A DNA stretch of 64,000 bases from Acidobacteriota bacterium (GTDB lineage: Bacteria; Acidobacteriota; Vicinamibacteria; Vicinamibacterales; UBA2999). The stretch's first letter is position 1. Each line of letters begins with the position of its first letter. The translations under genes and the position numbers were made by a program. Below are positions 148 through 17,483 of the stretch, in pieces. The notes below the pieces were generated by a model that worked only from the letters and a program-made list of their open reading frames with translations, searched no databases and was not told the DNA's origin. The stretch lies in NCBI GenBank assembly GCA_016192845.1, contig JACPTI010000064.1, positions 9,601 to 73,600 of the forward strand. Reading direction: 5' to 3'.

Positions 148-1548
148 TTAATTCACTGCCGCGCGCACCTTCACCGCCCACGCGCGCGCCTCGGCGAGCA
201 CCGCCGCCTCGTCGAGCGTCAGCACCCGGCGATCGCGCATCAGCACCCGCCCGTTGACGATCGTCGTCCGGACGTCGTCGCCGCGCGTCGTGTAGACCAG
301 GTGCGACACGGGATCGTACATGGGCGTCTGGCGGGCGGCCGTCATGCCGACGATGATGACGTCGGCGCGTTTGCCGGGCTCGAGCGAGCCGATCTGCGAC
401 GCCATGCCGAGCGCCCGGGCGCCGCCGATCGTCGCCAGCTCGAGGGCGGCCGCCGCCCCGAGCGCCCGCGGGTCGCCGGTCCGCACCTTCTGCAGCAGCG
501 ACGCCACGCGCATCGCTTCGAACATGTCGAGGTCGTTGTTGCTCGCGGCACCGTCGGTCCCGAGCCCGATCGCCACCTCCGCGGCGCGGTAGCTCGTCAC
601 GGGCGCCGTGCCGCTCGCGAGCTTCATGTTGCTCTCCGGGTTGTGCGAGACGCCGACCTCGCGCTTCCGAAGCAGCGCGATCTCGGCATCCGACACCCAG
701 ACCGCATGGGCCGCCAGCACGCCCGGACCGAGGAAGCCGAGGCGCTCGAGGTAGTTCACAGGCGACGCCTTGAAACGCTCCTGCGCGGTGTTCAGCTCGT
801 CGCTCGTTTCGGCCAGATGAATCAGCGTCGGCACGCCGTGGCGGCGGGCCAGTGTGCGCGCCGCCATGAGCGTCGGCCCGTCGAGCGTGTAGATCGCATG
901 GGGCGCCACGGCCGGGGTGATGAGCGCGTCCCCCTTGAAGGCCGTGATCAACGCCTCGGCTCGGGCCAGCGCGTCGGCCGGCGTCTTCGCATCCGCCACC
1001 GGAAACTGGATGATCGTCTGCCCGAGCACGCCGCGCAGCCCCGCCGCCTTCGTTTCGCGGGCGATCTCCTCTTCGAAGTAATACATGTCGGCGTACGTGG
1101 TCGTGCCGGACTGAATCATCTCGAGCGCGGCGAGCCGGGTGCCGGCGCGCACGAAGTCGGGCGAGACCGTCTTCGCCTCGGCCGGGAAGATGTACTTCGT
1201 GAGCCACTCCATCAGCGCGAGGTCGTCCGCCAGCCCGCGATACAGCACCATCGGCGCATGCGTGTGAGTGTTCACCAGCCCGGGCAGCACCACCTGTCCG
1301 GCGGCATCGATCGTCTCGGCGCCGCGGAACCGACGCTCGACGACGTCCGCCGCGTCGACCGCGACGATACCGGGGCCGTCGATCGCCACCGCGCCGTCCG
1401 CAATCACACGCCGGCTGCCGTCCATCGTCACGACCGTGCCGTTGGTGATCACGATCGAGACCTGCCGCTGCCCCGTCTGCGTGGAGACCACGGCAAGGGC
1501 GACGAGGCCACCGAGCAGCGCCGCCACGATCGCAAACCGTGCCTTCAT
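148..1548 (-). CDS. Metal-dependent amidohydrolase (MtaD/SAH-deaminase-like) with N-terminal hydrophobic segment
   Basis: PGLVNTHTH, IHLAET, AHAVWV, HNPESNMKLASG and GLGTDG motifs; lies between hpt and upp. Confidence 0.85.
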   Translation of the reverse strand: MKARFAIVAALLGGLVALAVVSTQTGQRQVSIVITNGTVVTMDGSRRVIADGAVAIDGPGIVAVDAADVVERRFRGAETIDAAGQVVLPGLVNTHTHAPMVLYRGLADDLALMEWLTKYIFPAEAKTVSPDFVRAGTRLAALEMIQSGTTTYADMYYFEEEIARETKAAGLRGVLGQTIIQFPVADAKTPADALARAEALITAFKGDALITPAVAPHAIYTLDGPTLMAARTLARRHGVPTLIHLAETSDELNTAQERFKASPVNYLERLGFLGPGVLAAHAVWVSDAEIALLRKREVGVSHNPESNMKLASGTAPVTSYRAAEVAIGLGTDGAASNNDLDMFEAMRVASLLQKVRTGDPRALGAAAALELATIGGARALGMASQIGSLEPGKRADVIIVGMTAARQTPMYDPVSHLVYTTRGDDVRTTIVNGRVLMRDRRVLTLDEAAVLAEARAWAVKVRAAVN

Positions 1549-2979: not shown

Positions 2980-3045
2980 CCCTTCGACTAGCAGTGTCGA
3001 GGGGCGACAGGCTCGCTCCAGGCCTCCGAGAACCCAAGATCTCTG

Positions 3046-3981
3046 TTATCGCGACGCGCCCGTCGCGGCAGCCGACGTCGTCACCTGGCGCGGCGCGATC
3101 CCGTGCTTGGTGAGGAAGGCCCGCATGGCCTCGACCGCGCGCAACTGATCTGGACGCGGGAAGTTCCCGTGCAGCCCTTTGGGCACCGTGTGGAGCTCGC
3201 TCGTCGTGCCCGCCTGCTGCAGCGCCGCGTGCAGTCGCGTGGCGTGCGCGTACGGCACCGTCGGATCCGCGTCGCCGTGAATCGTCAGAATCGGCGGCAG
3301 ATCCCTGCGGACGTAGGTGAGCGGCGACACGCGCCTGGCGGCCTCGGCGCGGTCGGGACGGCTGCCGAGCCATTCCACCGCGTAGGAGCGGGTGTTCGCG
3401 CCGTCGATCAGATCGGCCACGTCCGTGATGCCATACCAGTTGACGACCGCGGCGACCCGCAGCGGCTCCGTGCCGGGGCACTGGCGGTCGAGGCCGGCGG
3501 AGGCCGGAATCATTGCCGTCGTGAGCGCCAGATGGCCACCGGCGGAGTAGCCGGTCGTGACGATCCGGTTCACGTCGAAGTTGTACTCCTTGGCGTTCCG
3601 GATCACCCACCGCAGGGCGCAGAGGCAGTCCTCGACGGCCGCCGGCGCCGGGGAGACGCGCCCCAGCCGGTACGACACGTTGACGACGGCGAACCCCATT
3701 TCGACGAGCGGCAGCGCGCGGAGCAGGACGCCCTCGCGGCTGCCGCCCACCCAGCCGCCGCCGTGGAACTGCAGCACGGTCGGATGCGGGCCGCCGGACC
3801 GCGGCACGTACACATCGAGCTTGGCTTCCCAGTTGTTGGCCGTGAGGTAGGTGATGTTGGTCGCCACTCGCAGGTCGTTGGCGAGCCAGGCGGTCCACTC
3901 GGCAAGCGGCGTCTGGGCCCGGGCCGGCGCGCCGGCGCAGCACAGCACGAGCGCTGTCAGGGCAATGAGGCGGCGTGTCAT
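3046..3981 (-). CDS. Secreted alpha/beta hydrolase (esterase/lipase, HGGG type)
   Basis: Signal peptide, HGGGW, GYSAGG nucleophile elbow, HGDADPTV, GLHG; SD (CAGGAG) upstream. Confidence 0.9.
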   Translation of the reverse strand: MTRRLIALTALVLCCAGAPARAQTPLAEWTAWLANDLRVATNITYLTANNWEAKLDVYVPRSGGPHPTVLQFHGGGWVGGSREGVLLRALPLVEMGFAVVNVSYRLGRVSPAPAAVEDCLCALRWVIRNAKEYNFDVNRIVTTGYSAGGHLALTTAMIPASAGLDRQCPGTEPLRVAAVVNWYGITDVADLIDGANTRSYAVEWLGSRPDRAEAARRVSPLTYVRRDLPPILTIHGDADPTVPYAHATRLHAALQQAGTTSELHTVPKGLHGNFPRPDQLRAVEAMRAFLTKHGIAPRQVTTSAAATGASR

Positions 3982-4008
3982 GGTTCAGCTCCTGTCATCA
4001 GTGGCGTG

Positions 4009-4043
4009 AGTATACCCGGAGGCCGACACCGGCATGCTAGACT
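4009..4043. promoter_or_regulatory. Divergent -10 elements: TATACT (minus, 4009-4014) for the hydrolase and extended TGcTAGACT (plus, 4035-4043) for the tRNA
   Basis: Sigma70-like hexamers at suitable distances from ATG 3981 and tRNA start 4055. Confidence 0.5.
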
Positions 4044-4054
4044 GAACTGCTCCG

Positions 4055-4131
4055 GGACGCGTAGCTCAGTTGGTTAGAGCACCCCGTTCACACCGGGGAG
4101 GTCACTGGTTCGAGTCCAGTCGCGTCCACCA
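4055..4131 (+). tRNA. tRNA-Val(CAC), CCA encoded
   Basis: Full cloverleaf: GGACGCG/CGCGTCC acceptor, GCTC/GAGC D-stem, CCCCG-TTCACAC-CGGGG anticodon arm, ACTGG-TTCGAGT-CCAGT T-arm. Confidence 0.98.
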
Positions 4132-4231
4132 CCTCCAACCTTTTGACCCCCAGTGACTTGCGATCCGACTGCAAATCGCTGATCGAACCAATCGGACCGC
4201 CTCCCGCCACACGTCGCTTGAAGATGAACGG

Positions 4232-4250
4232 TCGACGATGTCATCGTCGA
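4232..4250. promoter_or_regulatory. 19-bp palindrome TCGACGATG-T-CATCGTCGA, candidate operator
   Basis: Perfect 9-bp arms ending 20 nt before ATG 4270. Confidence 0.4.
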
Positions 4251-4269
4251 TGGTGGCGCGGCAACACAA

Positions 4270-4587
4270 ATGACCGACGATTCTCCCGTGATTCGGAGAG
4301 GACCCCTCAAAGGGAAGCGCGTCGAATGTGCCTCGATGAGCGGCATCGACGCGTTCCAGGAGCTTGCCGAAGACTTTATGCTCGACATCTTCGGCTTCGA
4401 GCCCGGCGAATATCTGATTACGGATCTCTCGAGCTTGCGTGATTTCGTCGGAGTCGACGACATGGAAGTGGTGGACATGCTGGCGAGAATCAGGGAGGTT
4501 TATGGACTGGATGTCGCCGACCTTCCGAATGGAAACCTGCTCGAAATCTTCCGGAGATTGGATAAACACCGAGCCGATCAACAGTGA
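4270..4587 (+). CDS. Small acidic hypothetical protein
   Basis: 105-aa ORF; its TGA overlaps the GTG of the next ORF (GTGA at 4584-4587). Confidence 0.7.
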   Translation: MTDDSPVIRRGPLKGKRVECASMSGIDAFQELAEDFMLDIFGFEPGEYLITDLSSLRDFVGVDDMEVVDMLARIREVYGLDVADLPNGNLLEIFRRLDKHRADQQ

Positions 4588-4937
4588 CTCCCGAGGACAC
4601 GACGAAGGCCGGCGAGGTGTTCGTACGGTTCTCGGGCTACGAGAACGACAACCGCGTGCGAGACGACGGAAGCCTTCGACCTGGGACCTACGCAACGACA
4701 GAGGAAGACGCGAAAAACGTCAAAACGGGAAAGGACGCAGTGGCCCGGTATGCTATGCCGAATCCTCAACCAGCGTCTTACCGCTTCACAATCAGGCCGG
4801 AGAGGGATACGGTTATTCAGAAGGGGATCGTCGAACCGGCGTTCGACCAGCCTGGCGGTGGCGTCGAAGTTATCTTCAAGAATGGGACGACGCCGAAGAC
4901 CGTGACGTTGCCGCCTGACAAGATCCCGGACGAGTGA
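4584..4937 (+). CDS. Stand-alone toxin-like domain, TNT/ADP-ribosyltransferase (NAD+-using) fold predicted
   Basis: VRFSG, GTYAT, ARYAMP..P..Y and GIVEPAFDQPGGGVEV resemble the TNT-family G.iaPwFgQPGGGxQ core; no signal peptide or carrier domain. Confidence 0.6.
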   Translation: MTPEDTTKAGEVFVRFSGYENDNRVRDDGSLRPGTYATTEEDAKNVKTGKDAVARYAMPNPQPASYRFTIRPERDTVIQKGIVEPAFDQPGGGVEVIFKNGTTPKTVTLPPDKIPDE

Positions 4938-4941
4938 GCAG

Positions 4942-5145
4942 ATGAGAATCAAACTCGATCGATGCTGGACTGAGCGACTGTTGGACTTACCCGAATCCGG
5001 GATGGGTTATCAGCGCGTCGACGTTCGCTTGGCCGATGGTCGGGTGTTGCGTGACGTCCTCGTGTTCAATGCTGAGGAACTGGAACTCCCCGACGAAGTC
5101 GCACCAGCCGCTATCGCGGACGTCCGCCTCCACGCGGCTTCCTAG
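4942..5145 (+). CDS. Small beta-rich protein, candidate immunity/antitoxin
   Basis: 67 aa, starts 4 nt after the toxin-like ORF stop; LPESGMGYQRVDVRLADG. Confidence 0.6.
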   Translation: MRIKLDRCWTERLLDLPESGMGYQRVDVRLADGRVLRDVLVFNAEELELPDEVAPAAIADVRLHAAS

Positions 5146-5155
5146 CGTTGCCAAC

Positions 5156-5245
5156 GGCCGCGGTAGCTCAAGCTACTCTCGAGAGCGCTCAACTGCCTGA
5201 GCCAAGCGACAATTTGGTTCCAACTGGCGCCAGTTAGGGCCACCA
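5156..5245 (+). pseudogene. Degenerate tRNA-like relic
   Basis: GGCCGCGGTAGCTCA...GAGAGC...TGGTTC...CCAGT...CCACCA echoes the 5', D, T and 3' landmarks of the tRNA at 4055; no canonical anticodon arm. Confidence 0.35.
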
Positions 5246-5287
5246 ACCTCCGCTCACGCTTGCCAACGGAAGCGTGAGCTGCGGTTG
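5243..5287. repeat. Long imperfect hairpin (GCTCACGCTT/AAGCGTGAGC core, CAACC/GGTTG outer arms)
   Basis: 10-bp perfect stem at 5252-5261/5270-5279. Confidence 0.65.
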
Positions 5288-5706
5288 ACAAGCCACGCGG
5301 AGGTTGTCCACCGTTGGGCGAAGCGCGAAGGAGCCAGACTGAGCCTAATCGCTACTACGCGGGGCTGACATCGGACGTCTCGGCGAGATTTGCAGCCCAT
5401 AATGCCGGCTGTTGCTCGCACACGGCAACCGGCCGACCCTGGAGCATCGACATCGTTGTGGAGTTCGCCAACGACGAACGCGCGTGAACGGATGGAGCGT
5501 CATCGACCGCGCGGCGCCCTGCCGGACGAGATCGGCGATTGCGGCTTTCACTGCCTGGGGCGCGGCGTCTCGCCGCTGCCCGCGGACGCGATCGAACAGG
5601 TGCTCGAACGCTCCCTTTGCGGCGCTCGACGTCCGCTCGACCTCACGACACGCCGCGATGACGAGGACCGGCAGCGCCGCCAGCCTCGCGCGTCAACGGC
5701 AGCCAC

Positions 5707-6375
5707 TCATCGCACCGCTTGTCCGTTGATGATCGTGTAGTGGTACGTCATCGAAAACGACGACGCACCGGCAAGGCGCACTTGCGCCTCGGATACCATC
5801 TCGACCGGCACGCGGACGCCGCCGATCCGCTCGTAGCGTCGGATGATGTCGACGCGCGTCGTCCACGACGATGGCGGCTCCGACGGGCGTCCCTCGACCC
5901 TGACGACGTCGCCGTTGTCCTGCCGTACAACAACCAGCCCTTCGAGCAGCATCGGACTTCGCCGGCGTGGGATCAGGCGGATGTTCACCAGGCCGTCCGA
6001 CGCAGGTCCGGCCACGTCGAAGTCATAGTTAGCCGGCGTGAGGGCCACCTCCGCCATCACCCGCGGATCCCGGCTGCGCCGCTCCGTCTCCAGCGCGGCA
6101 ATGAGCACGTGTTCCAGGAGCAGCCTCGATCCGTCTCCCCGAATCACATCGAATCGAAACGTGCCGTCGCGATCGAGGTACGTCCATACTTCCAGCCGCG
6201 CACGCAGCCGCCCGCCCATCGTGGAGGCGGTCAACACGCGGCGCGCCGCACAACTGGTCAACTCGGGGCGTCCGGAGCGCAGGAACTGCTCGATCAGTGC
6301 GTCATCGATCTTTGAAGCGCCCGCGGCAACCGCGGACGCGAGGCAGACGATGGCGAGAATGGCGACGAGCTTCAT
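5707..6375 (-). CDS. Exported hypothetical protein, LolA/MucB-like beta-rich fold suspected
   Basis: Signal peptide MKLVAILAIVCLASAVAAG; ATGA coupling with the DedA gene; amphipathic beta-strand pattern. Confidence 0.7.
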   Translation of the reverse strand: MKLVAILAIVCLASAVAAGASKIDDALIEQFLRSGRPELTSCAARRVLTASTMGGRLRARLEVWTYLDRDGTFRFDVIRGDGSRLLLEHVLIAALETERRSRDPRVMAEVALTPANYDFDVAGPASDGLVNIRLIPRRRSPMLLEGLVVVRQDNGDVVRVEGRPSEPPSSWTTRVDIIRRYERIGGVRVPVEMVSEAQVRLAGASSFSMTYHYTIINGQAVR

Positions 6376-6827
6376 AATCCTCTCCACGCAAGGTGCGGAA
6401 TGAATGCCACCGCACCGAAATGAATCAACCGGCCCAGCATGCCGACCGCCACGAATCGGCCGAATGCGACGTTGAGGGCCCCTGCCGCCATTGCAACCAC
6501 GTAGAACGGAGGGATGCCGACGGACGCGCTGACGAAGGTCACGCCGAGCCCGGATGCCGGGCAGCGCGACAGCCGCTCGCGCCAGCGGTCGACAACCTGT
6601 TCCAGTCGGAATCTCGATCGCGTCGTGCGTCGCCCGACCCAGTACATCGCCGCCTTGCCGGTCATCTGACCGGCCGCCACGACGGCGACGAGCGCGCCAA
6701 GCTCGACGGGTGATCCGGCCAGCGGGATGGCCGAGAGCATGACGAGCTCACCATTCACCCACGGCAGCACGGCGCTACAGGCGGCGAGCGCGTAGTACCC
6801 GGCGGCCAGCCACCAGATGTCCAGCAT
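6372..6827 (-). CDS. DedA/VTT-family membrane protein
   Basis: GQMTGK..MYWVGR and VS..G.PPFY....AAG.....F.RF....GR pattern; several TM helices. Confidence 0.75.
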   Translation of the reverse strand: MLDIWWLAAGYYALAACSAVLPWVNGELVMLSAIPLAGSPVELGALVAVVAAGQMTGKAAMYWVGRRTTRSRFRLEQVVDRWRERLSRCPASGLGVTFVSASVGIPPFYVVAMAAGALNVAFGRFVAVGMLGRLIHFGAVAFIPHLAWRGL

Positions 6828-6834
6828 GATGCAC

Positions 6835-7623
6835 CTACCAGGTCACGTGGCTGCTGAGCAGCACGTACAGGAGCCATGTCAGGGCATAGGGCGTCAGGAA
6901 CAGACGCCGCCGCGCCACCCACTCGGTGAACGGGCCCGTCATCGATCGGAACTTGCCCGGCGCGTACTCGCGGACGACGATCTTGAACAACAGCTCCAGG
7001 AACATCCGCATGCTGCCGATGGCGGCGAGCAGCAGGAACACGTCGTCGGCCGTGTGGCCCGATGCGATCACGCCGCCGAGCGCGCCGAAGGTGGGACTCT
7101 TCGCGAACTTGGGCCACGAAAACCCTTCGATGCTGCCGTCCTTGTAGCCGCCGGCAATCGCCTCCGCGATCCCGATGCTGAGCCCGACGACGAGACCGTG
7201 CAGGGCGCGGGGCCAGGAGTCGGAGACGAGCGTGCCGAGCGCGCCAATGCCGAAAATCGACGCGAGAAACCCGAATCCCAGCGCCAGCCGCAGCACCGGA
7301 TTGTGAACGACGCCCGTCATCCAGTGAATCTGCGTGGGTATCCGAAACTCCCCCTGCGGCTCGACACGGACGAACAGCTTCCAGAACTCCGTTGCAATGC
7401 GCGTGAGCGCGAACACCGCCAGATACAGCACGAACGCGCTCTGTGTGGTCGTCGGCGAATACACCCACGGCAGCGCGAATGCGATCGTCACGGCGACGGC
7501 AATCTCACGGACGAAGCGGCGCATCAGAAACGATTCGTGCGGGCTGTCCTTGTAGGCGCCGTACAAAGCGCCGTGGAGCCCGGCGGCAAGTCCAAGAGCG
7601 ATCATCGTGGCAAGCGTTATCAT
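6835..7623 (-). CDS. Multi-pass membrane protein with internal duplication (GAYKDS..ESF..RRF / GGYKDG..EGF..PKF)
   Basis: 262 aa, strong SD (AAGGAGG), about 7-8 hydrophobic segments; decayed paralog at about 13300-13800. Confidence 0.8.
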   Translation of the reverse strand: MITLATMIALGLAAGLHGALYGAYKDSPHESFLMRRFVREIAVAVTIAFALPWVYSPTTTQSAFVLYLAVFALTRIATEFWKLFVRVEPQGEFRIPTQIHWMTGVVHNPVLRLALGFGFLASIFGIGALGTLVSDSWPRALHGLVVGLSIGIAEAIAGGYKDGSIEGFSWPKFAKSPTFGALGGVIASGHTADDVFLLLAAIGSMRMFLELLFKIVVREYAPGKFRSMTGPFTEWVARRRLFLTPYALTWLLYVLLSSHVTW

Positions 7624-7779
7624 CCGGCCTCCTTCTCCACCCTGAAATGCGCCAACAGCGGCGCAATCGGCTCACAACGGGGAGACCGGTGGGAGGGGCA
7701 GACCGCTCGCCGGATCGGTTGCGTTGAATTGGATGTGGAACCGGTGAGCGCAGCTACAACAGCCGCGCGGTGTGTCGAG

Positions 7780-9444
7780 CTAGGCGACGGGGCGCTCAGG
7801 CATTCGCTTGAGCCCTACGAGCTTCCATCCCTCGGCGGTCCGCCTGAAGTAAGCCTGCACCGGGACTGTCCATGAAGGATGGGGCGGATTGATCGCCTCA
7901 ATGTCGATCCGTACGAACGATCCGATAGCAGTCGGCAGACCGACCGGCGCCTGCATCCGGCCGGTGGCGGCCGCGGTTGGCGTGCCGATCGGCCGCGATT
8001 CGCCGGTGTTGTTGTTGAAGACGAACCAGTAAGCGCGATATCCCCCGCTCGGCGGCTCGGCGGCTCGCGCATCGACAGCAGCGTTGTCGAATGTCAGTGC
8101 GCCGGACACGTCCAATGCGACGTTGACAAGAGGGTTGACCGCCGTCAGGTACGCACGGCCAATCCGGTCGCGGCGTTTGATCAACACGTCGGCCAGGTGC
8201 CGCTCGGCCGCGGGGTCGCTGTACTGGCCGGCCTCGACCACGGCGCGGATCAATTCATCCGAAAACGCCATCACCCGCCGGGCGGCCCAGAAGTTGTCGT
8301 CCGCCCGCGCGTTCATGAACGCGGCAGTCGGCACACGCGGCTTCCACGTGATGGGATCGAACTCATCGCCTTCAAATCGGCCAATGGAACGGCGCTGGAC
8401 GTACGGAATTGTCTGCCAGGGACGCAGGTAGAACCCCAGCGATGCAAGGCGCTTCCACGTGGCGTCACCCTCGAAGAGGTATTCGTGTCCTTCATCCCAC
8501 TCACGGGGCGCCAATGCTCCGGTACCGAACGTCGACCCGACATCCTGCAGATAATGCCGGACCCTACCGCGGCCGCCTTCGCTGATGAGCGTATCGAGGG
8601 TATTTCCGGCTTTCATGTCGACGAGGTTCGTCCATGCGCCAAACACCTTCAGCGCGCGCAGCTCACGCCGGTGCTCGTGCGGGACGATATCGTTGGGATC
8701 GTCGGGCCGCGTGCCGTGATACCGGAAGCCGCCAAGGACGCGGCCGGGAATGGCGCGGCTTGCCAACATCCGGTAGGCGCCGTTCGGCTGTCGCGCTGCC
8801 CGCTCGAGCAGCTTGCCGAGATCGTCACGGTCGAGCTGCCGGATCTTTCCTGAGGGCGTCTCTGTGACCGCCTTGGGACCGATCGTGAGATCCTCCGGCG
8901 ACAGCTCGGCAATGTGGTATTCCGCCTGCCAATAGCCGAGGAGGTGAAAGATTCTGTTGGCAACCATCGAGGCCCCGGTGGCCGCCTCGGGGTATTTCGC
9001 CGCCTCGAACTGAATAAACCACGTCACGCCCGCGGAATCCTGCAGCACGAACCCGGGACTCACGCCGGCCGGCTTGGCGCGCGTCACCGTCATCGGCCCA
9101 CGCGCCGGCTCCGGGCTGGTCACCGGTCCACGCAAGGCCTCCTCGATCGAAACAGCCCGCGCGAGAATCCGGTTTGTGAACCAACTCGAGTCAGGCACCT
9201 CGCCGATCGTGTTGACGTTCTGCGCCTTGATGGATCGGTGGTCGCCGGGACTGTCGAAAAGGTTCTGGATCAGGTCGTAGGTCAGAACATTCTTCCAAGG
9301 TTGTACCTTCGACGCGTCCTGCGTCTCCGGCTCGCGGAGAAGTGGATCGTCGTCGTAGAACTTCTGTCCGTTTCCCGCCAGATCGGCAGCCGTAACAGCG
9401 ACGGCTACGATGACGACGGCGATTACGCGGTGGCGGTACAACAC
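7780..9444 (-). CDS. Exported atypical protein-kinase-like protein (PI3/4-kinase/HipA/CotH-like fold suspected)
   Basis: GVSPGFVLQD..G..WFIQF, AW...VDMKAGNT (DxKxxN-like loop), HYLQDVG (DFG-like); hydrophobic N-terminus; GTG 9444 after GAGG. Confidence 0.6.
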   Translation of the reverse strand: MLYRHRVIAVVIVAVAVTAADLAGNGQKFYDDDPLLREPETQDASKVQPWKNVLTYDLIQNLFDSPGDHRSIKAQNVNTIGEVPDSSWFTNRILARAVSIEEALRGPVTSPEPARGPMTVTRAKPAGVSPGFVLQDSAGVTWFIQFEAAKYPEAATGASMVANRIFHLLGYWQAEYHIAELSPEDLTIGPKAVTETPSGKIRQLDRDDLGKLLERAARQPNGAYRMLASRAIPGRVLGGFRYHGTRPDDPNDIVPHEHRRELRALKVFGAWTNLVDMKAGNTLDTLISEGGRGRVRHYLQDVGSTFGTGALAPREWDEGHEYLFEGDATWKRLASLGFYLRPWQTIPYVQRRSIGRFEGDEFDPITWKPRVPTAAFMNARADDNFWAARRVMAFSDELIRAVVEAGQYSDPAAERHLADVLIKRRDRIGRAYLTAVNPLVNVALDVSGALTFDNAAVDARAAEPPSGGYRAYWFVFNNNTGESRPIGTPTAAATGRMQAPVGLPTAIGSFVRIDIEAINPPHPSWTVPVQAYFRRTAEGWKLVGLKRMPERPVA

Positions 9445-9457
9445 AGATGCCTCGACG

Positions 9458-10708
9458 CTAAAACGCCGGCCCCGCCGCAACGACGATCCGCATGCCTTCC
9501 TGGCCTCTCGCCAGATCGACGCGCAACGGGGTCGCGATGGGTGTGTGGAATCGCACGCCGATCCCGTAGTCGATCTTCATTTCGTCCAACGCGAGAAGGC
9601 CACTGCGGAACGGAGCGACTTTCCCGGCATCGATGAAGAGCGCCATATCGAGCCCAACGCGATTCGGAAACCACCGGAGCTCGCCCGAGAGCAGCAGGCT
9701 GTGCCGATCACGGAACCGCTGGTTGGCGTAGCCGCGCAGGCTGTCGCCGCTCCCCAGAGTGGGCATGAGGAAGTACGGTACGACGTCCGACTTGCGGACG
9801 ATCGATTCGGTGCCGCCGCGCAGCGACACCACCCACGTCTCGCGCAGGAGAGGCACATGCTGGACGATCTGCGTGCGCAGGAAGCCAAACGTGCCGCCGC
9901 TGCCACGGAGCGGGTTGAACTCTTCGTACGCCACACGGTACAGACCTCCGGTGCGGCTGTAACCCGGTGATTCCAGCCAATAGGCCGTCGCCGACGCCTC
10001 GCCGCGGAGGTAGAGCGGGTTGTCGCCGAGGAGAGGCGCCGTAGCCGGAGAGAAGATCTGCTCGATCGAGGGAGCGGCGCCGTGGCCGGGCTTCTGCGTG
10101 TAGTCATCGAAGCCGCCGTCCAATCGCAGACCCAGCCACCTCACGGGACGGAGCACCGCGGCGCCCTCCACATACGCGCGGTTGATTCGGAAGTTGGTGC
10201 GGTTGTCGAGGCGCGACGCATTGCCCAGTCCGTAGAATGCGACCTGCGTGGCGTCGACCCAGACGATCGAGCCCTCGAGATCGAGGCGCTCGCCCAGGTG
10301 GTTTGGGGTAAACCCTGTGATCGCAACCTTCTTGTAGCCCCTGACCGAATACAGAGCGCCCACGTCCACGAACGAGTCGTACCCGATGTATTGGCGGTAT
10401 CCGCCACCTGCCGCAAGGCCACCACCCGGATAGACGGATCCCACCGTGGAGTACCACCCCCGCGGAACTCCAAGAATCCACCTGCCCCGCTCAACCTGGT
10501 CTAAGAAGACTTCGACCCGGTTCGGGCGGTACGGCGCGGCCGTTCGCGCCTTGTCTTCCTGTTGTTTTTCGACTTCCGCCGCCCGAGTCTCCCACCCCAA
10601 CGCGGCTGCCGCGTTGGGGGCCCCGGTCTGGGCCGCGGCGGAAGCGGAGCAAGCGGCGATGATCGCCAGGAAGGCTGCCACGAGTCGGTACGTGGTCTGG
10701 TGATTCAT
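9458..10708 (-). CDS. Omp85/BamA-TamA-type outer-membrane beta-barrel without evident POTRA domains
   Basis: Signal peptide, LGSGDSLRGYANQRF (VRGY/F loop), C-terminal YGIGVRF...RVDLA...F; ATGA overlap with upstream gene. Confidence 0.85.
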   Translation of the reverse strand: MNHQTTYRLVAAFLAIIAACSASAAAQTGAPNAAAALGWETRAAEVEKQQEDKARTAAPYRPNRVEVFLDQVERGRWILGVPRGWYSTVGSVYPGGGLAAGGGYRQYIGYDSFVDVGALYSVRGYKKVAITGFTPNHLGERLDLEGSIVWVDATQVAFYGLGNASRLDNRTNFRINRAYVEGAAVLRPVRWLGLRLDGGFDDYTQKPGHGAAPSIEQIFSPATAPLLGDNPLYLRGEASATAYWLESPGYSRTGGLYRVAYEEFNPLRGSGGTFGFLRTQIVQHVPLLRETWVVSLRGGTESIVRKSDVVPYFLMPTLGSGDSLRGYANQRFRDRHSLLLSGELRWFPNRVGLDMALFIDAGKVAPFRSGLLALDEMKIDYGIGVRFHTPIATPLRVDLARGQEGMRIVVAAGPAF

Positions 10709-11532
10709 GAGGCGAGCGTCTTGCGGGTCGTCGCGAGCGTGAACTCGAGCGACTCGCGCGGGATGCTGGTCACGAATGGACGGATCAGCCAGCCGAACCC
10801 CAGGGGGATATCGCGCGTCAGCGATATGGATTCGCACTGGACGTACGTGCCGCCGTCCCGCTCGAGAAACCGCCAGTACGTATACAGCCGCCACAAGTAG
10901 CCCCCATCACGCCCGATGGGCTTCTCTCGCTCGCGCGGCGTATCGGGCGCCTCGACTTCGGCGATCCGCGTACTGTAAATCCGGCTCTGCGCCCGATCGC
11001 GACCGTCACGCTTGAAGCGTGCTTCGTGCTCACTGTTAACAATGACCGTGATGACTTTCTTCATGAAGAACCGCAGGTAGACGCGAAACCTATCGCCATC
11101 ACGGGCAAGCAACTTGGAACGGGCAACGGCAGGCTGATAGATCTGCGCATGCCGGTCGTAGTCCTGAAGCAGCGCGAGGGCCCGGTCGACGGTCGTACCG
11201 GGCACGAACACTAGGCCGATCCAGTGATGGACGAGGCCATCCGGTATGACGATCTCTCTCCCGGCGTCGCGTGTGGTGAGGCGTTCGATGAGAAGCGCGC
11301 CCCGCCGCAGTTCATCGCGATGCATCTGTTGCCGTCCCTCGGGCTGCGTATCCAGCCATAGGAACGCAACATCGGCATCCATCCGCGCTTCGGTCAGCTG
11401 CACGTAGTGATTGAATGCGGCAACTGTGCGAGCCTGCAGTTCCGCTGCTGCGGCTGGTATCGCCCACAACAACAACACCGCAGTGACGGCCACGCTGACT
11501 GACACACGCGTCAGACGATGCGCGTTGTTCAT
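10705..11532 (-). CDS. Exported uncharacterised protein, START/helix-grip-like fold suspected (paralog A)
   Basis: Signal peptide ending AAAA-ELQ; HHWIGLVFVPG, RIYSTRIAEV, YLWRLYTYWR; highly similar to 16638-17471. Confidence 0.75.
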   Translation of the reverse strand: MNNAHRLTRVSVSVAVTAVLLLWAIPAAAAELQARTVAAFNHYVQLTEARMDADVAFLWLDTQPEGRQQMHRDELRRGALLIERLTTRDAGREIVIPDGLVHHWIGLVFVPGTTVDRALALLQDYDRHAQIYQPAVARSKLLARDGDRFRVYLRFFMKKVITVIVNSEHEARFKRDGRDRAQSRIYSTRIAEVEAPDTPREREKPIGRDGGYLWRLYTYWRFLERDGGTYVQCESISLTRDIPLGFGWLIRPFVTSIPRESLEFTLATTRKTLAS

Positions 11533-11542
11533 ATACCGCTGT

Positions 11543-12346
11543 CTATCGCTCTTTCATACTGTTCTGAATGTTTGACGAAGCCTCCTGAGCACGCTTCTTC
11601 GCCTCGGGTTCCCAGCCACTTCTGGCCGCATAGGATTGCAGCAGGCCCATGGCCTTCGCCTTCGTACCGATTTCGGAAGCCTCAACTCCAATCTTTTCTA
11701 CGGCACGGACCGCCATCATGCGGACTTCCATGCCGCCTATAGCGGCGGATGAATCCAACGGTGCGACAAGCAGATCAAGCGCTGTTTGAAAGGCTCCGTC
11801 GTCGCGACTGCCTTCCACTGCTCTGACGACAGCGTTAATTGCCGGAATCCTGACGCCGTTGTTTCCGCTCTGAACCGCCGGCGTCAACACCTTCAATGCG
11901 GCCAGCGCGATCTGGGCGCCGCTTCCGGACCTCGTAATGCTGTTGACCGCGTCAATTGCGACATCACGTATGGGTACCTGGCTGGCTTGTAGTGGTTCGC
12001 CCAACGTCGCCAGCGCGCGGACCTTGACGCGAACGTCTTCAGTGCTGTTGGCGATTTCGGCGATCGCATATACGGCCGGCATCCTGATATGGTCCGATGC
12101 ACTGCCGGCCGGCTCAGCGAGGAGCCCCAACGCGCTCAGTTTCACATCGGAATTCGCGGATGCGAGGCCGATCGCCCAGACTCGGTGAAGCGCCTCGACT
12201 CGAGTTCGGGTGTCAGCGTCCCCGACTTTCTGTTTGAGCGCTACAAGCTCTGCGAGCTGAGTGCCCAGACTGGCTTGCGCGGACGCATGTCCACCCGTCG
12301 AAACCACGGCCACGACGACGGCAACAAACACAGTGCGGATCACCAT
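11543..12346 (-). CDS. Exported HEAT/ARM-like helical repeat protein
   Basis: Signal peptide; recurring S...vR..A..Ai..i....d..vk..AL..L units; SD upstream; visibly lower GC than flanks. Confidence 0.75.
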   Translation of the reverse strand: MVIRTVFVAVVVAVVSTGGHASAQASLGTQLAELVALKQKVGDADTRTRVEALHRVWAIGLASANSDVKLSALGLLAEPAGSASDHIRMPAVYAIAEIANSTEDVRVKVRALATLGEPLQASQVPIRDVAIDAVNSITRSGSGAQIALAALKVLTPAVQSGNNGVRIPAINAVVRAVEGSRDDGAFQTALDLLVAPLDSSAAIGGMEVRMMAVRAVEKIGVEASEIGTKAKAMGLLQSYAARSGWEPEAKKRAQEASSNIQNSMKER

Positions 12347-12602
12347 GCTCGTTCTCCTTTCGCGAGCGACGGCTCTCCTTCTTGGCGGCTTTGGACCACT
12401 ATGCGGCCCCCGAAACGAGAATTTTGTATCCGCTGCCCGGCGCGACTCGGGGCCGCAAGCGGTCCTAGGCGCGGGGAGCGCGCCAAGAGATGCACCTTAT
12501 ACACCCAAACGCCTCGTCCGGTGTCCTGTTGGAAGGCGAAATTGTGGTGAATGAGCCGTTTTTTTCCCAACCGCGCATTACGGGAGTGAAGGAGGTGCAG
12601 CC

Positions 12603-13294
12603 ATGATCGCTTCTCACCTAAAGCGGCTCAGTGCGCGCAGATAGGTCTTCGTCCTGGCGGTTTTTGGCGCGGTCCTGTTCGCCGCTGACTCTGCCGAGGC
12701 TCAACAAACATCGCGGCGCGTCGGCATCGGTGCAGCCATCGGCGACGTGCATAGCATCTTCGCCACGGCGGCGTTGCGGACCACCGAGGACGCCGTTGCC
12801 GCGCCTTTGATCCTTTTCCCGATCCAGATCACGAACTGGTTTCGAATCGAACCTGCGGTAGGCGTGTTTCGCCACAGCCACGACGAACCCGCGGACTACT
12901 CGGTCAATGGAGTCGAGCTTGGGCTCGGGATATTTCCGCAACTGGTCCAGAGAGCTTCCGACTGTATTACGGGGCTCGTGTAGGTTACATGAGAGCGAAA
13001 GAGGAACAGAAGGAAACCATCGCCATGCGCGGCGTGCAGATCACAGGAACGAAAATGCAAACGGTTGATGGGTTCTTTGTCGCGCCCGCCATTGGCGGGG
13101 AATATCTGTTTTCGGACCGATTCAGCCTCGGAGCAGAAGTTCAGTTTCGACACACGTCCATCAAGGGTGACGAGGTCAGCACGCTTAGCGGGCTGCGTCC
13201 TGGGGTACGCGTTCCGAGTGCGCCAGAGGCCGAAAGATTCGACACGTCGGTCTCGACAACCCGTGTCCTTTTCGTCACGCGTTTCTATTTCTGA
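12603..13294 (+). pseudogene. Outer-membrane beta-barrel (OmpA-like/porin) pseudogene
   Basis: AAGGAGG SD then ATG 12603; in-frame TAG at 12642-12644 inside the signal peptide; frameshift near 12955 joins ..GLGIFPQ to FRLYYGARVGY..; ends in beta-signal ..VTRFYF. Confidence 0.7.
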
Positions 13295-13299
13295 GGGGC

Positions 13300-13800
13300 A
13301 AGTCCGCCGTTGTATAGTTGCGCTCGCAGGAGGGAGACAGCAGATGCCGAAGTAATCTGATCCTGGCCTCGTACACGAACGTCGGACTCCTGGCAAAGGT
13401 GCACCAGGAGAACCCCTCGATGCTACCGTCCTTATAGCTGCCGGCCATCCCCTCGGCGATGCCCACGCAGAGCCGTACGAGCAGATTCGCGTACGGCGCG
13501 CAGCCACCATTCAGGAACGAGCATGCCGACCGCCGAAGAACCCGATTCCGAGCGCCAGCCGCAGCGGCAGATTGTGAACAACGTGCTTATCCAAAGAATC
13601 TCTGTGTCAATGCGAAATTCCTCCTGCGGCTCGACGCGCACGGAGAGCTTCCAGAACTCGGTGGCAATCCGCGTGGGAGCGAACACCGAGAGGTACAGCA
13701 CGAAGCCGCTCTGGCTGGCCGTCGCCAGGTACAGCAACGGCAGCAGGAACGAGACCACTACGCACGGCGAGGCTTGGCCACGAGGAGACGCTCAGAAGCA
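13300..13800 (-). pseudogene. Decayed copy of the 6835-7623 membrane protein gene
   Basis: FVLYLSVFAPTRIATEFWKLSVRVEPQEEFRI and GSYKDGSIEGFSW.TFARSPTF match the intact paralog in different frames; 5' truncated, internal deletion. Confidence 0.85.
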
Positions 13801-13819
13801 GCTACAATAGCCGCGGACC

Positions 13820-14347
13820 GTGGGCGTCAACTCTTCGCAAGCAGACGTCGACGATTTGGTACAGGTGGTCTATAGCGAACTGCGGCGGCTCGCGGCGGGC
13901 TACTTGCGGCGGGAACGACCCGGCCAGACGCTGCAGGCGACGGCGCTGGTCCACGAGGTGTACATGCGCCTCGCCAACGCAGGCCGGCCGTGGACCGACC
14001 GCCGGCACTTCCTCGGGATCGCGGCGCGGTCGATGCGGCAGATTCTCGTGGAGCGGGCGCGGGCGCGAGGCGCGCAGAAACGTTGGGGCGCCATGGATCG
14101 CGTGACGCTGACCGAATCGCTGACAAGCGGCGCGAACGACGATGCCATGCTGCCCGCGCTGCATGAGGCGCTGTCGCGGCTCGAGCGGATCGACGCCGAG
14201 CAGGCGAGAATCATCGAGCTTCGCTATTTTGCGGGACTCAGCGTCGAAGAAGCGGCCGACGCACTGGGTATGTCTCCCGCCACGTTGAAGCGGCGCTGGG
14301 CGCTGGCGCGCGCCTGGCTCTTTCGCGAACTGAACGGTCAGCGATGA
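13820..14347 (+). CDS. ECF sigma factor, TIGR02999-type (kinase-associated)
   Basis: VYSELRRLA..YL..ER.GQTLQATALVHEVY, RHF.GIAARSMRQILVE, LRYFAGLSVEE, KRRW..ARAWL. Confidence 0.9.
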   Translation: MGVNSSQADVDDLVQVVYSELRRLAAGYLRRERPGQTLQATALVHEVYMRLANAGRPWTDRRHFLGIAARSMRQILVERARARGAQKRWGAMDRVTLTESLTSGANDDAMLPALHEALSRLERIDAEQARIIELRYFAGLSVEEAADALGMSPATLKRRWALARAWLFRELNGQR

Positions 14348-15828
14348 TCGCCGGCGACCGCTGGCAGCGCGTGCGCGACCTGTTCGAGCAAGCCCTCGAG
14401 GAAAAGCCTCCGGACGTGGGCGCGTGGCTCGATCGGCTCGGGGTGGGGGACTGGCAGGTTCGCGAGGAGCTCGTGTCGCTGATCCGCCATCACTCCTCCG
14501 CTGGATCCTTTCTTGTCAAGCCTGCTAGCGATCGGCTCTCAGATCTCATGGCCGATGACGGAACGCTCGAGCCCGGCCACAATGTTGGCCAGTACACCAT
14601 TGTGCGCCAAATCGGTCATGGTGGCATGGGGCGTGTCTATCTGGCCGAAGACGCACGACTCGGGCGACGGGTTGCGCTCAAGGCGCTGTCGCCCGAGCTA
14701 ACGGCAGACCCCTCACATCGCGAGCGGCTGCGGCGCGAGGCCCGCGCGGCCGCGGCGCTGACGCACCCGGGCATCTGCACGATTTACGCGCTCGAGGAGA
14801 TCGATGGGAACCTCTTCATTGCCAGCGAATTCATCGACGGGCACACGCTGCGCGAAGAAATGGCGAGTGGCGTCCGGCCCGCCGCGACCGACGTCGTGCG
14901 CACCGCCCGGGAGCTGGCCGACGCGCTCGCGGCCGCGCACGGCCGGGGCATCACTCACCGCGACCTGAAGCCGGAGAATGTGATGCGAGCGACCGACGGC
15001 CGGTTGAAAATCCTCGACTTCGGCCTCGCGCGCATCGAGCAGACGGCCGCCGCGGCGGCGCTGTCGGCCGAGGATCGCGTCACGCAGCCCGGCGCGATTA
15101 TCGGCACACCGGCGTACATGGCGCCCGAGCAGTTGAATGGGGTGCGCGCCGACCCCCGTGCGGACGTTTTCGCCTTCGGCGTGCTCATCTATGAGTACGC
15201 GTGCGGCATCCATCCGTTTCACGCGGCATCACCGCTGGCGCTGATCGGACGCATTCTCGAGGGGAGCGCCGAGCCGCTCGAAAGCCGGCGGTCGGACCTG
15301 CCCGCGCGGCTCATCGCCGTCATCGAACGATGCCTGTCGAAATCGCCGGCTGACCGTTTCGCGTCGGCAGTCGAGGTGCTGCGGGCGTTGGAGCGCGTCG
15401 AGCCGGTGCCCGCCTCCCGCAGGATCCGAACGTGGTGGCGAGCGCATCAGTTAGTCCTCATCGCCCTGTACTTCACCGCCTGCGCCCTCGCGTGGCAGGT
15501 CAAGGAATGGTTGCCTGGCGTCACGACGGCAATCTTCGTCGCAACATGCGTGGCCGCGACCATTGGCGGCGTATTCCGCGGTCACATGGTCTTCAGCGAA
15601 CGCGTCACCGGCCTCGAGCCGGCCTCCCCAGGCCGGAGCGCCGCTACGGCAACCCTCGTCGTCGACCTGCTGGTGGCGCTCGCCCTGACGGCCGACGGCG
15701 CCCTTCTCGCGCCCCAGCGCCCGCTTCCGGCCGTGCTGACGATCGCCCTGGGCATCGGCATCGCGCTCGCGCGCGTGGTGGTCGAACCGACGACCACTAC
15801 TGCGACGCTGAGGCAGCCGCGGCTGTGA
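14344..15828 (+). CDS. Hanks-type Ser/Thr protein kinase with C-terminal multi-TM domain
   Basis: IGHGGMGRVY, VALK, HRDLKPEN, DFG, GTPAYMAPE; about four TM helices at the C-terminus; ATGA overlap with ECF. Confidence 0.92.
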   Translation: MIAGDRWQRVRDLFEQALEEKPPDVGAWLDRLGVGDWQVREELVSLIRHHSSAGSFLVKPASDRLSDLMADDGTLEPGHNVGQYTIVRQIGHGGMGRVYLAEDARLGRRVALKALSPELTADPSHRERLRREARAAAALTHPGICTIYALEEIDGNLFIASEFIDGHTLREEMASGVRPAATDVVRTARELADALAAAHGRGITHRDLKPENVMRATDGRLKILDFGLARIEQTAAAAALSAEDRVTQPGAIIGTPAYMAPEQLNGVRADPRADVFAFGVLIYEYACGIHPFHAASPLALIGRILEGSAEPLESRRSDLPARLIAVIERCLSKSPADRFASAVEVLRALERVEPVPASRRIRTWWRAHQLVLIALYFTACALAWQVKEWLPGVTTAIFVATCVAATIGGVFRGHMVFSERVTGLEPASPGRSAATATLVVDLLVALALTADGALLAPQRPLPAVLTIALGIGIALARVVVEPTTTTATLRQPRL

Positions 15829-15874
15829 GCCGGAGGACCCATGCTTTGCGCATTCCAGGTTGGAGGCCAAAAGC

Positions 15875-16576
15875 ATGTCGCACCACCAGGCTCAACCGTG
15901 CTGCGTTCACACGCGCGAAAACAGAGGTCTGCTCGCCGTCGTTGAACGGCGCGCGCTTGTCTGGATCGCCGAGCGCCTGCCGCCACGCATCAACTCGGAC
16001 CACCTGTCCGGGCTGGGCTTGGTCGCGATGGCCGCCGCCGGCCTGTCGTTTGCGGCGTTCCGTTTCACGCCGTGGGCCGCGGCAGGGGTGGTGGCCGCGC
16101 TGGCCGCCAACTGGTTTGGCGACAGTCTGGATGGCACCGTTGCGCGCGTGCGCGGCCAGCAGCGGCCGCGCTACGGCTTTTACGTCGACCACCTGATTGA
16201 TCTGGCGGGCACCACGCTCCTGCTGGCCGGCCTGGCGTGCTCCACGTTGATGAGCCCCCTCGCCTGCGCCCTGCTGTTGGCGGCGTATCTGCTTGTGTCG
16301 GCAGAAATGTATCTCGCGACGCACGCGGCGGGGGTCTTCCGGATGTCGTTCGGGGGGTTTGGCCCGACGGAACTGCGAGTGCTGCTGGCCATCGGGGCGC
16401 TCCAGGCCGCGATCGACCCGTGGGTGTCATTGCACCTGCTGGGCCCAATCCGGCTCTTCGATCTCGGTGCGCTGGTCGCGTCAGCCGGCCTTGCCGTTGT
16501 CTTCGTTGTCTCGGCGGTTCGCAATACGCGCGCGCTCTCTGTGGCGGACCCTCGTCCGACTCGCATCACTGACTGA
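15875..16576 (+). CDS. CDP-alcohol phosphatidyltransferase
   Basis: NW.GDSLDGTVARVRGQQRPRYGFYVDHLID matches the D..DG..AR...G...D..D signature. Confidence 0.9.
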   Translation: MSHHQAQPCCVHTRENRGLLAVVERRALVWIAERLPPRINSDHLSGLGLVAMAAAGLSFAAFRFTPWAAAGVVAALAANWFGDSLDGTVARVRGQQRPRYGFYVDHLIDLAGTTLLLAGLACSTLMSPLACALLLAAYLLVSAEMYLATHAAGVFRMSFGGFGPTELRVLLAIGALQAAIDPWVSLHLLGPIRLFDLGALVASAGLAVVFVVSAVRNTRALSVADPRPTRITD

Positions 16577-16637
16577 GGACAGCATGATGTGCCGCGGGCC
16601 GCCCTTCACGTCTCGCGGGTGCGCGTCCGGCACCCCG

Positions 16638-17471
16638 CTACCTGGCCAGCGTCCTGCGCGTGGTCGCCAGCGTGAATTCGAGAGACTCGCGCGGGATGCT
16701 GGTCACAAAGGGCCCGATCAGCCAGCCAAACCCGATCGGGATGTCCCGCGTCAGCGAGATCGACTCGCACTGCACGTATGTGCCACCATCCCGCTCAACA
16801 ACGCGCCAATACGTGTACAGGCGCCAGAGGTACCCGCCGTCACGTCCGACCGGCTTTTCGCGCTCGCGAGGGGTATCGGCCGCCTCGACTTCGGCGATGC
16901 GTGTGCTGTAGATGCGGCTCCGGGCGCGGTCCGGTCGATCTCGATCGAACCGCGCTTCGTGCTCGCTGTTCACCACCACCGTGATGATCTTCTTCATGAC
17001 GAATCGCAGTTCCATCCGGAACAGGTCGCCGTCACGGGCGAGCAGGCGGGATCGAGCGACGGCCGGGCGGTAGATCTCGGCATGCCGGTCGTAGTCCTGC
17101 AGGAGGCCCAGTGTACTGTCGACAGTCGCCCCGGGCACGAAGACCAGCCCGACCCAGTGGTGGACGAGACCCTCGGGGATCGCGATTTCCTTGCCGCCCT
17201 CTCGAATGGTCAGGCGCTCGATGAGCACGGCTCCCTGCTGCAGCTCGCTGCGTCGCCTCGATTGCTGCGACGGCGGCAACGCGTCCACCCAGAGGAATGC
17301 GCTCTCGCTGGCCATACGCGCCTCGGTGATGCGCACATACCGGTCGAAGGCGGCAATCGTGCGAGGCTGCAGCTCCGCAGCACTGGCGGCGACTGCCCAC
17401 AACGCGGATGCCGCAGCAGTCAGACCGATCCAGACGCGCGGTCGACGCGGCGCTGCCTCGATATTCGGCAT
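16638..17471 (-). CDS. Exported START/helix-grip-like protein (paralog B)
   Basis: Near-collinear with 10705-11532 (HHWVGLVFVPG, RSRIYSTRIAEV, ESLEFTLATTR). Confidence 0.75.
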   Translation of the reverse strand: MPNIEAAPRRPRVWIGLTAAASALWAVAASAAELQPRTIAAFDRYVRITEARMASESAFLWVDALPPSQQSRRRSELQQGAVLIERLTIREGGKEIAIPEGLVHHWVGLVFVPGATVDSTLGLLQDYDRHAEIYRPAVARSRLLARDGDLFRMELRFVMKKIITVVVNSEHEARFDRDRPDRARSRIYSTRIAEVEAADTPREREKPVGRDGGYLWRLYTYWRVVERDGGTYVQCESISLTRDIPIGFGWLIGPFVTSIPRESLEFTLATTRRTLAR

Positions 17472-17483
17472 CGGTATATATAC

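Follow-up and report, generated by a model that had tools for sequence, protein, structure and literature searches.

A 64,000-nucleotide stretch of DNA from an Acidobacteriota bacterium (positions 9,601 to 73,600 of contig JACPTI010000064.1), referred to here as the window, contains three small genes, ORF1, ORF2 and ORF3, directly behind a tRNA-Val gene. ORF2 and ORF3 belong to a gene pair which recurs in unrelated bacterial genomes, and taken as a whole this pair is read here, with a probability of roughly 0.6, as a toxin and its protein inhibitor. As judged from a predicted structure, ORF2 very probably has the ADP-ribosyltransferase-like (ART-like) fold of the TNT-like NAD+ glycohydrolases (NADases). 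ORF1, which weakly resembles the acyl carrier proteins (ACPs), is an add-on gene and not a fixed partner of the pair. The features concerned are as follows.

4055-4131, plus strand: tRNA-Val gene (anticodon CAC), identified by ARAGORN and by Rfam (RF00005, 72 bits).
4270-4587, plus strand: ORF1, 105 amino acids (aa), an acidic, weakly ACP-like accessory gene.
4584-4937, plus strand: ORF2, 117 aa, a TNT-like/ART-fold domain and presumed toxin.
4942-5145, plus strand: ORF3, 67 aa, conserved as a partner of the ART domain and presumed to be its protein inhibitor (as antitoxin or as immunity protein).

The initial annotation of this DNA had described three tightly coupled ORFs behind the tRNA, and the coordinates agree with that description. 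The GTG start codon of ORF2 lies within a GTGA sequence and overlaps the stop codon of ORF1, and ORF2 and ORF3 are separated by 4 nt. A word-indexed search retrieved 69 homologues of ORF2, 118 of ORF1 and 468 of ORF3, and because each ORF has so many conserved homologues, the three are not chance reading frames. ORF1 had been singled out as acidic; this holds for its predicted pI of 4.4, but ORF2 (5.1) and ORF3 (4.8) are acidic as well.

When 1.84 billion cluster representatives were searched with a profile, 701 relatives of ORF2 were identified at E-values up to 1e-3. The best 150 of these representatives are at most 290 aa long; nearly all of them measure 200-255 aa, with the ORF2-like domain in C-terminal position. 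Fifty-seven loci were taken from species-representative genomes, almost all of them metagenome-assembled genomes (MAGs), which span the Acidobacteriota, Verrucomicrobiota, Gammaproteobacteria, Gemmatimonadota and other groups. Loci from metagenome assemblies were added to these, and the loci were scanned in all six frames with hidden Markov models of ORF1, ORF2 and ORF3. An ORF3-like gene was present directly 3' of the ART gene in 59 of the 62 non-redundant loci, beginning a median of 2 nt past the stop codon. The three exceptions were a locus at a contig edge (L165), a locus in which ORF3 is present (5349-5540, with the ART frame ending at 5333) but lies just beyond the counting window (L062), and a single locus which truly lacks ORF3 (L050). 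The predicted linkage of ORF2 to a downstream partner was borne out by these counts, and the homologues of ORF2 are not confined to the C-termini of RHS proteins.

The flanks of the loci were mixed, and included IS3 and DDE transposases, RepA_C, PemK, PhdYeFM and ParE-like genes, a large helicase, a BREX cluster and metabolic genes. An all-against-all BLAST of the flanking ORFs detected no other gene family common to the loci. The ART domain was present in 4 of 401 genomes of the window's phylum, and in none from the same genus or family. This pairing, together with the unshared flanks and the patchy distribution in the phylum, is characteristic of a self-contained two-gene module that moves horizontally. 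ORF2 and ORF3 also have the layout of a type II toxin-antitoxin (TA) system, in that two small, co-directional and tightly coupled genes recur in unrelated contexts, and it is very likely that they form a functional pair. No viral relatives were detected in a scan of IMG/VR, in phage tblastn searches with the long form of the toxin described below and with ORF3, in a BFVD fold search or in PHROGs, and plasmids yielded a single weak Rhizobium match with a GGGVE motif. In one locus (L005, 729-7343) the long-form ART gene and ORF3 are located beside a 569-aa AAA_15/AAA_21 ATPase and a BREX cluster (BrxE, BrxA, BrxB and BrxC).

The AlphaFold2 model of ORF2, built on 20 natural homologues, had a pLDDT of 87.4 and a pTM of 0.77, and displays a palm-domain, ART-like fold as in the TNT-like NADase structural family. 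When this predicted model was compared with the Protein Data Bank (PDB) using Foldseek, the best match was Tne2 (6b12; E 3.4e-4, TM 0.62), followed by Serratia Rhs1-CT (6xtd; E 4.6e-4, TM 0.67) and then by NADases of Aspergillus, Neurospora and Fusarium, Tse6 and TNT; the top 19 matches all belong to the TNT-like NADase structural family. A model of the long form gave the same best matches (Tne2, Rhs1-CT, AfNADase, Tse6 and TNT), with an E-value of 6.1e-4 for Tne2. The Foldseek comparison is concordant with the ART/TNT-like fold that the initial annotation had proposed, as is the weak match of ORF2 to the Pfam TNT family (PF14021; 18.2 bits at E 3.4e-3, the cut-off being 27 bits), which spans residues 73-100 and covers the PAFxQPGGGxE stretch. 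The same weak match was observed in six of eight family members scanned together and in another five sequences, which comprise other members and distant relatives. Of 13 relatives scanned, 11 scored 14-20 bits, two were silent and none reached the threshold, and formal membership of ORF2 in Pfam TNT is not supported. A Pfam TNT search of 301 genomes of the phylum returned nothing, although the control genomes were equally silent. ORF2 had no match in NCBIfam, PADLOC or PHROGs, and the family is uncurated, being under the Pfam threshold and absent from NCBIfam and PADLOC; literature searches did not turn up a description of the ORF2-ORF3 family.

The motifs VRFS, GTYAT, RYAMP and GIVEPAFDQPGGGVEVIF, on which the initial annotation relied, are all present in the ORF2 translation. 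Residues which were invariant in alignments of 40 and of 44 sequences include R15, D22, R24, Y36-A-T-T39, R55, G91-G-G93 and E95. The two residues to which the initial annotation gave most weight, an early Arg and a Glu in place of Gln, are among these. R15 is located on the first strand of the predicted model (residues 13-17), which is where the TNT-like NADase structural family carries its conserved, NAD+-binding Arg. The Gln found at the catalytic position of TNT-like NADases (GGGxQ) is replaced in the ORF2 family by an invariant Glu (E95, in GGGVE), which is retained even in distant Terriglobus and Rhizobium relatives. When compared with the triad of the R-S-E (cholera-toxin-like) ARTs, which consists of Arg, Ser-Thr-Ser and [QE]xE, R15 and the YATT strand are present, but the last motif is G-V-E, so that only the final Glu corresponds; a Pfam search with ORF2 detected no ART family. 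ORF2 may be a minimal TNT-like ART-fold enzyme using NAD+, which would either hydrolyse it or transfer its ADP-ribose. Because every close structural relative is a NAD(P)+ glycohydrolase, hydrolysis is by analogy slightly favoured over transfer, whereas the invariant Glu replacing Gln suggests ADP-ribose transfer.

Distant relatives of about 275 aa were found in three further Acidobacteria loci (L068, L069 and L070, the last from Terriglobus sp., 4446-5282), with the motif APAFDQPGGGVEFW. Their N-terminal region is hydrophobic and signal-peptide-like, and no ORF3-like gene follows. These may belong to the same Glu-containing clade and be secreted.

The domain is indeed stand-alone in the window, as had been noted, but this is not the norm for the family, whose usual toxin is about 220 aa long with an N-terminal domain homologous to ORF3; the 117-aa form of the window is rare. 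The long forms start with M-x-x-L...LL-x-Q-P-E-S-G-M-G-Y-Q-x-V, and the corresponding sequence in ORF3 is MRIKLDRCWTERLLDLPESGMGYQRVD. Gene callers often begin the long forms at the internal MGYQ, but the frame is open and contains an ATG some 18-27 codons upstream. The similarity of ORF3 to the N-terminal domain was detected by pairwise BLAST (1e-7) and by hhalign of 38 ORF3 sequences against 44 long forms (99.07% probability, E 1.5e-18), and on sequence grounds the N-terminal domain is a paralogue of ORF3. The AlphaFold2 model of a long form from the Vicinamibacterales (L021, 4668-5339; pLDDT 91.8, pTM 0.86) consists of an alpha/beta N-terminal domain (residues 1-80), a low-confidence linker (residues ~80-110) and the ART domain, and, to judge from its high pTM, the two domains may keep a fixed position relative to each other. 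The two paralogous modules differ systematically in their basic residues. An Arg or Lys directly follows GMGYQ in 37 of the 38 ORF3 sequences and Arg is conserved at three further positions, whereas the N-terminal domain has mostly hydrophobic residues at these sites.

The usual toxin would thereby carry an ORF3 paralogue joined through a flexible linker of about 30 residues, and the enzyme would be flanked by two inhibitor-like modules, one in cis and one in trans. The window form is a rare derivative which lacks the N-terminal domain and has ORF1 upstream. In its lineage the cis module and the linker would have been lost, and the unrelated ACP-like ORF1 would have become translationally coupled upstream. 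A short ART form followed by ORF3 but not preceded by ORF1 was also found (L164). The divergent gene upstream of this copy (258-1034, minus strand) encodes a 4'-phosphopantetheinyl transferase (ACPS), a coincidence with the ACP-like ORF1 that may mean nothing.

Several loci bear on the role of ORF3, whose core motif is LPESGMGYQ[RK]VD and which had no match in Pfam, NCBIfam, PADLOC or PHROG. In two of these (L066 and L067) the ART gene has been reduced to a C-terminal piece beside an intact ORF3, in another (L044) the ART gene is in two pieces beside an intact ORF3, and in L166 an in-frame deletion joins the first 34 residues of the ART protein to a complete ORF3. The only long form without ORF3 (L050) has a Gln at the position of the conserved Arg55, and adjoins a ParE/RelE-like gene. 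As ORF3 was kept in the window lineage even though the N-terminal domain is gone, its partner is taken to be the enzyme domain. ORF3 is probably an inhibitor of ORF2, a small protein which would bind the enzyme domain and block the enzyme.

This arrangement was compared with characterised systems. Tne2, Rhs1-CT, AfNADase, Tse6 and TNT form the TNT-like NADase family, in which an immunity protein is encoded immediately downstream of each; 6XTD is the Serratia NADase (PMC10539506). Unrelated immunity proteins each place a basic residue in the catalytic cleft of these enzymes (PMC10539506). The conserved basic residues of ORF3, which lie beside its invariant motif, may be analogous to such cleft-occluding residues (PMC10539506), and would fit the inhibition principle known for Tni2, Tsi6 and RhsI1, although these immunity proteins are related neither to one another nor to ORF3. 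The closest counterpart is Tne2-Tni2 of Pseudomonas protegens (6B12), the best structural match to both ORF2 and the C-terminal domain of the long form (TM 0.62-0.64 on the target), with which the pair shares a small NADase fold of the palm-domain type and, directly downstream, a gene for a cognate inhibitor, here a presumed one. Tne2 differs in that it forms the C-terminal tip of a PAAR effector, which a type VI secretion system (T6SS) delivers, whereas the ORF2 family has no carrier; the two enzymes share about 15% sequence identity, Tni2 is unrelated to ORF3, and the invariant Glu in GGGxE is a feature of the ORF2 family. Rhs1-CT/RhsI1 of Serratia marcescens, TNT/IFT, Tse6/Tsi6 and AfNADase share the fold class (TM 0.67) with ORF2, whose P-A-F-x-Q-P-G-G-G stretch is weakly matched by the Pfam TNT model, but are secreted, are larger or parts of giant proteins, and have Gln or Asp as the catalytic polar residue.

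A second set of counterparts acts inside the cell. RES-Xre/MbcTA, DarTG, ParST and CmdTAC are cytoplasmic two- or three-gene modules with an ART-related or NAD+-consuming toxin and an adjacent neutraliser, and are mobile and patchily distributed, as is the ORF2-ORF3 pair. They differ from this pair in that RES, DarT, ParT and CmdT are not TNT-like, and in that their antitoxins are HTH domains, macrodomains or chaperones. None of them is known to have a toxin with an N-terminal domain paralogous to the antitoxin. The single-chain or fused TA proteins EzeT and CapRel-SJ46 resemble the ~220-aa long form in carrying an inhibitor-like domain in cis with the toxin domain. These two proteins are not known to have an additional trans copy of the inhibitor, whereas a free ORF3 paralogue is nearly always present in the long-form loci.

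The reading preferred here is that ORF2 and ORF3 would constitute a horizontally mobile, TA-like pair acting inside the producing cell. The predicted fold, its conservation, the pairing with ORF3, the paralogy, the mobility and the variable genomic setting were observed, whereas toxicity, its neutralisation by ORF3, the chemistry of the enzyme and any part played in phage defence or addiction are inferred. Several results weigh against this reading. The Pfam TNT score of ORF2 is under the threshold, the Foldseek E-values (~3e-4) and TM-scores (0.62-0.67) are modest, and PDB sequence and profile searches with ORF2 returned no TNT-like chain, only chance matches to a xylanase and PrtH. PADLOC had no match to ORF1, ORF2 or ORF3, and the context is clearly that of a defence island in L005 only. 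ORF3 is without the DNA-binding domain typical of type II antitoxins. It is also unusual for a toxin to be fused to a paralogue of its own inhibitor, and ORF3 and the N-terminal domain could instead be assembly or target-binding subunits.

The alternative that survives best, itself rather improbable, is that the enzyme is not toxic at all but is a two-subunit, NAD+-dependent modifying enzyme, with ORF3 and the N-terminal domain as substrate, activator or targeting subunits. A functional partner would be expected to be fused to the enzyme, as the ORF3-like module is in most members; the Glu at the catalytic position would fit a transferase; and the acidity of all three proteins is unlike the classic combination of a basic toxin with an acidic antitoxin. 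A patchy, mobile distribution without conserved metabolic neighbours is, however, unlike that of a housekeeping regulator, and ORF3 is kept beside enzyme genes that are deleted or broken. The TA and mobile-element genes in the neighbourhood fit selfish modules.

A somewhat smaller chance was given to an effector of interbacterial competition, with ORF2 or its long form exported, for example as cargo of the T6SS or of a type VII secretion system (T7SS), and ORF3 protecting the producer and its siblings. All of the close structural relatives (Tne2, Tse6, Rhs1-CT and TNT) are secreted and have an immunity gene downstream, the orphan copies of ORF3 beside decayed toxins resemble orphan immunity genes, and the distant Terriglobia relatives have signal-peptide-like hydrophobic N-termini and no ORF3. 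Other results speak against export. The initial annotation had already observed that ORF2 has no RHS/CDI stalk and no signal peptide, which was confirmed, and no secretion-related domains were found in the family members scanned. None of the best 150 of the 701 representatives is longer than 290 aa, the loci have no recurring PAAR, Rhs, LXG, WXG, VgrG or chaperone genes and no common flanking family, and the N-terminal domain is not a trafficking domain but is paralogous to the putative immunity protein. The weakest alternative, that the window copy is a non-functional, decaying remnant with a 5'-truncated toxin gene that has lost its N-terminal domain and has ORF1 as a chance neighbour, would account for the rarity of the 117-aa form, the truncated GIY-YIG gene just downstream and one extra base relative to L166 in a short TTG-start frame upstream of ORF1, but is quite unlikely given that ORF2 retains every family-invariant residue, that a separate Acidobacteria MAG has the same ORF1-GTGA-ORF2-ORF3 layout, its proteins being 81-93% identical, and that the short form with ORF3 occurs in the absence of ORF1 as well.

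The TNT-like NADases known so far serve as secreted weapons (TNT, Tse6, Tne2 and the Rhs tips). The family described here points to a sizeable unannotated TNT-like branch, which numbers about 700 clusters when grouped at 50% identity and comes mostly from bacteria of soil and groundwater. This branch seems to have been domesticated into a two-gene module acting inside the cell. Two of its features are unusual, namely the replacement of Gln by Glu in the catalytic motif and the occurrence of an inhibitor-like domain in both fused and free form. If the preferred reading of ORF2 and ORF3 as toxin and inhibitor is true, a new toxin clade would be added to the NAD+-centred TA and defence repertoire, and the compact pair (~110 aa plus ~66 aa) would be suited to the study of how NADase or ART activity is gated.

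The three genes had been proposed to act as a unit, and for ORF1 this did not hold. ORF1 was located beside the ART gene in 3 of the 62 loci (L001, from an Acidobacteria MAG, L165 and L166), and none of 87 ORF1-centred loci contained ORF2 or ORF3. The window, L001 and L166 also agree in the DNA sequence of the ORF1-GTGA-ORF2 junction, which is conserved among them. In L001 a second ORF1 paralogue (6761-7123, 120 aa) is located about 200 nt after ORF3, and the ORF1 family has on this account been duplicated around the cassette. ORF1 is unrelated to the N-terminal domain of the long form (hhalign probability 0.3%), and had no match on plasmids.

The resemblance of ORF1 to ACPs, which are likewise small and acidic, is a weak profile similarity over ACP helices I-III. 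The Pfam PP-binding family (PF00550) matched with an E-value of 0.048 (14.4 bits, far below the threshold of 20.8) and the NCBIfam ACP model with 0.088, and the best PDB profile matches were three ACPs (E 0.33-1) in which the carrier Ser aligned with Asp64 of ORF1. None of the 33 aligned ORF1-family members covering this position has a Ser there. ORF1 differs from true ACPs in lacking both the DSL-motif Ser and a score above the threshold, and it has no fatty-acid or polyketide context.

Other small cassettes were observed behind ORF1 relatives. In nine loci these relatives are followed by genes of 88 and 86 aa, a candidate for a second two-gene cassette. One of the nine is in the window's own genome (L008; contig C43, 16369-19662), where an ORF1 paralogue with 59% identity is followed on the minus strand (869-1824) by the 88-aa and 86-aa genes with an ATGA overlap; the other eight are metagenome loci, and neither protein has a Pfam match. 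In five loci the genes that follow are DUF6883 and DUF4926, with a gap of 2-3 nt in the three loci where the 110-aa DUF6883 gene is intact. Such DUF6883 and DUF4926 genes follow coupled ORF1 relatives in L011 (3001-3944), L010 (3001-4162) and L081. The third gene of L010 encodes 163 aa that are DUF4926-like at the N-terminus only, which echoes the layout of the long ART form, with a small domain fused to a larger one. The 110-aa ORF after ORF1 in L166 was considered as another DUF6883 gene and was ruled out, as it is the 34-aa ART stub fused in frame to ORF3. More distant ORF1 members are followed loosely by BrnT-like and other genes. The ORF1 family may provide a second lead, on accessory genes common to several toxin cassettes.

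A more elaborate version of the toxin-inhibitor reading, which must be considered doubtful, combines these elements into an undescribed abortive-infection or addiction switch. A TNT-like NAD+ enzyme would be kept under two paralogous lids, the N-terminal domain in cis and ORF3 in trans, and a trigger such as a phage protein, lost synthesis of ORF3 or cleavage of the linker would lift the lids and release the enzyme. Separately, ORF1 would be a promiscuous ACP-like accessory of at least three unrelated candidate TA cassettes, which would be the ART gene with ORF3, DUF6883 with DUF4926, and the 88-aa gene with the 86-aa gene.

A conserved stretch, LKIxxDDGIVV, with a TTG start, was observed upstream of many ORF1 relatives (4218-4269 in the window; 1820-1877 in L166). 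In L166 it is a separate ORF of 17 codons whose ATGA end lies on the ORF1 start, and elsewhere it is fused in frame to ORF1; relative to L166, one extra base puts the stretch out of frame in the window. The stretch may encode a leader peptide or mark an alternative start.

The region around the three genes differs from the sequence that precedes it, with a GC content of 57.7% in the 1-kb bin containing the trio (4001-5000) and of 70.7% in the bin before the tRNA (3001-4000). A second genome of the same genus has the esterase gene and the tRNA-Val at 89% identity. By BLASTN against contig C36 of that genome, position 18643 corresponds to window position 17484 and position 18672 to window position 4131, and because the tRNA-Val there directly abuts the sequence of window position 17484, the intervening DNA is a strain-variable region whose left edge is the tRNA-Val. 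Pfam searches of its ORFs detected mostly ORFs of no recognised family, several without any match, along with the following features.

4132-17483: the variable region itself (13.3 kb), with the trio at its tRNA-proximal edge.
9458-10894, minus strand: Omp85-like ORF (Pfam).
13820-14347: ECF sigma factor gene, followed directly by a Ser/Thr protein kinase gene (14344-15828).

No integrase was found among the ORFs of the 13.3-kb region in the Pfam searches and a direct-repeat scan detected no repeat of the tRNA 3' end, and for these reasons the region cannot be called an integrative element. The sequencing runs holding it were of groundwater-metagenome DNA only, with no RNA runs among them.

Just 3' of the trio, a 57-aa ORF (5314-5487, plus strand) matched the Pfam model of the GIY-YIG catalytic domain over positions 13-61 of its 78 (E 1.3e-5); apparently truncated at both ends, it is probably a gene fragment. 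The spacer in front of it (5146-5320, plus strand) had no match in Rfam. Its predicted folding energy of -75.2 kcal/mol was more stable than that of shuffled sequence (z = -2.7), and an imperfect direct repeat of 21 nt (TTGCCAACGG...) occurs in it at positions 5148 and 5260.

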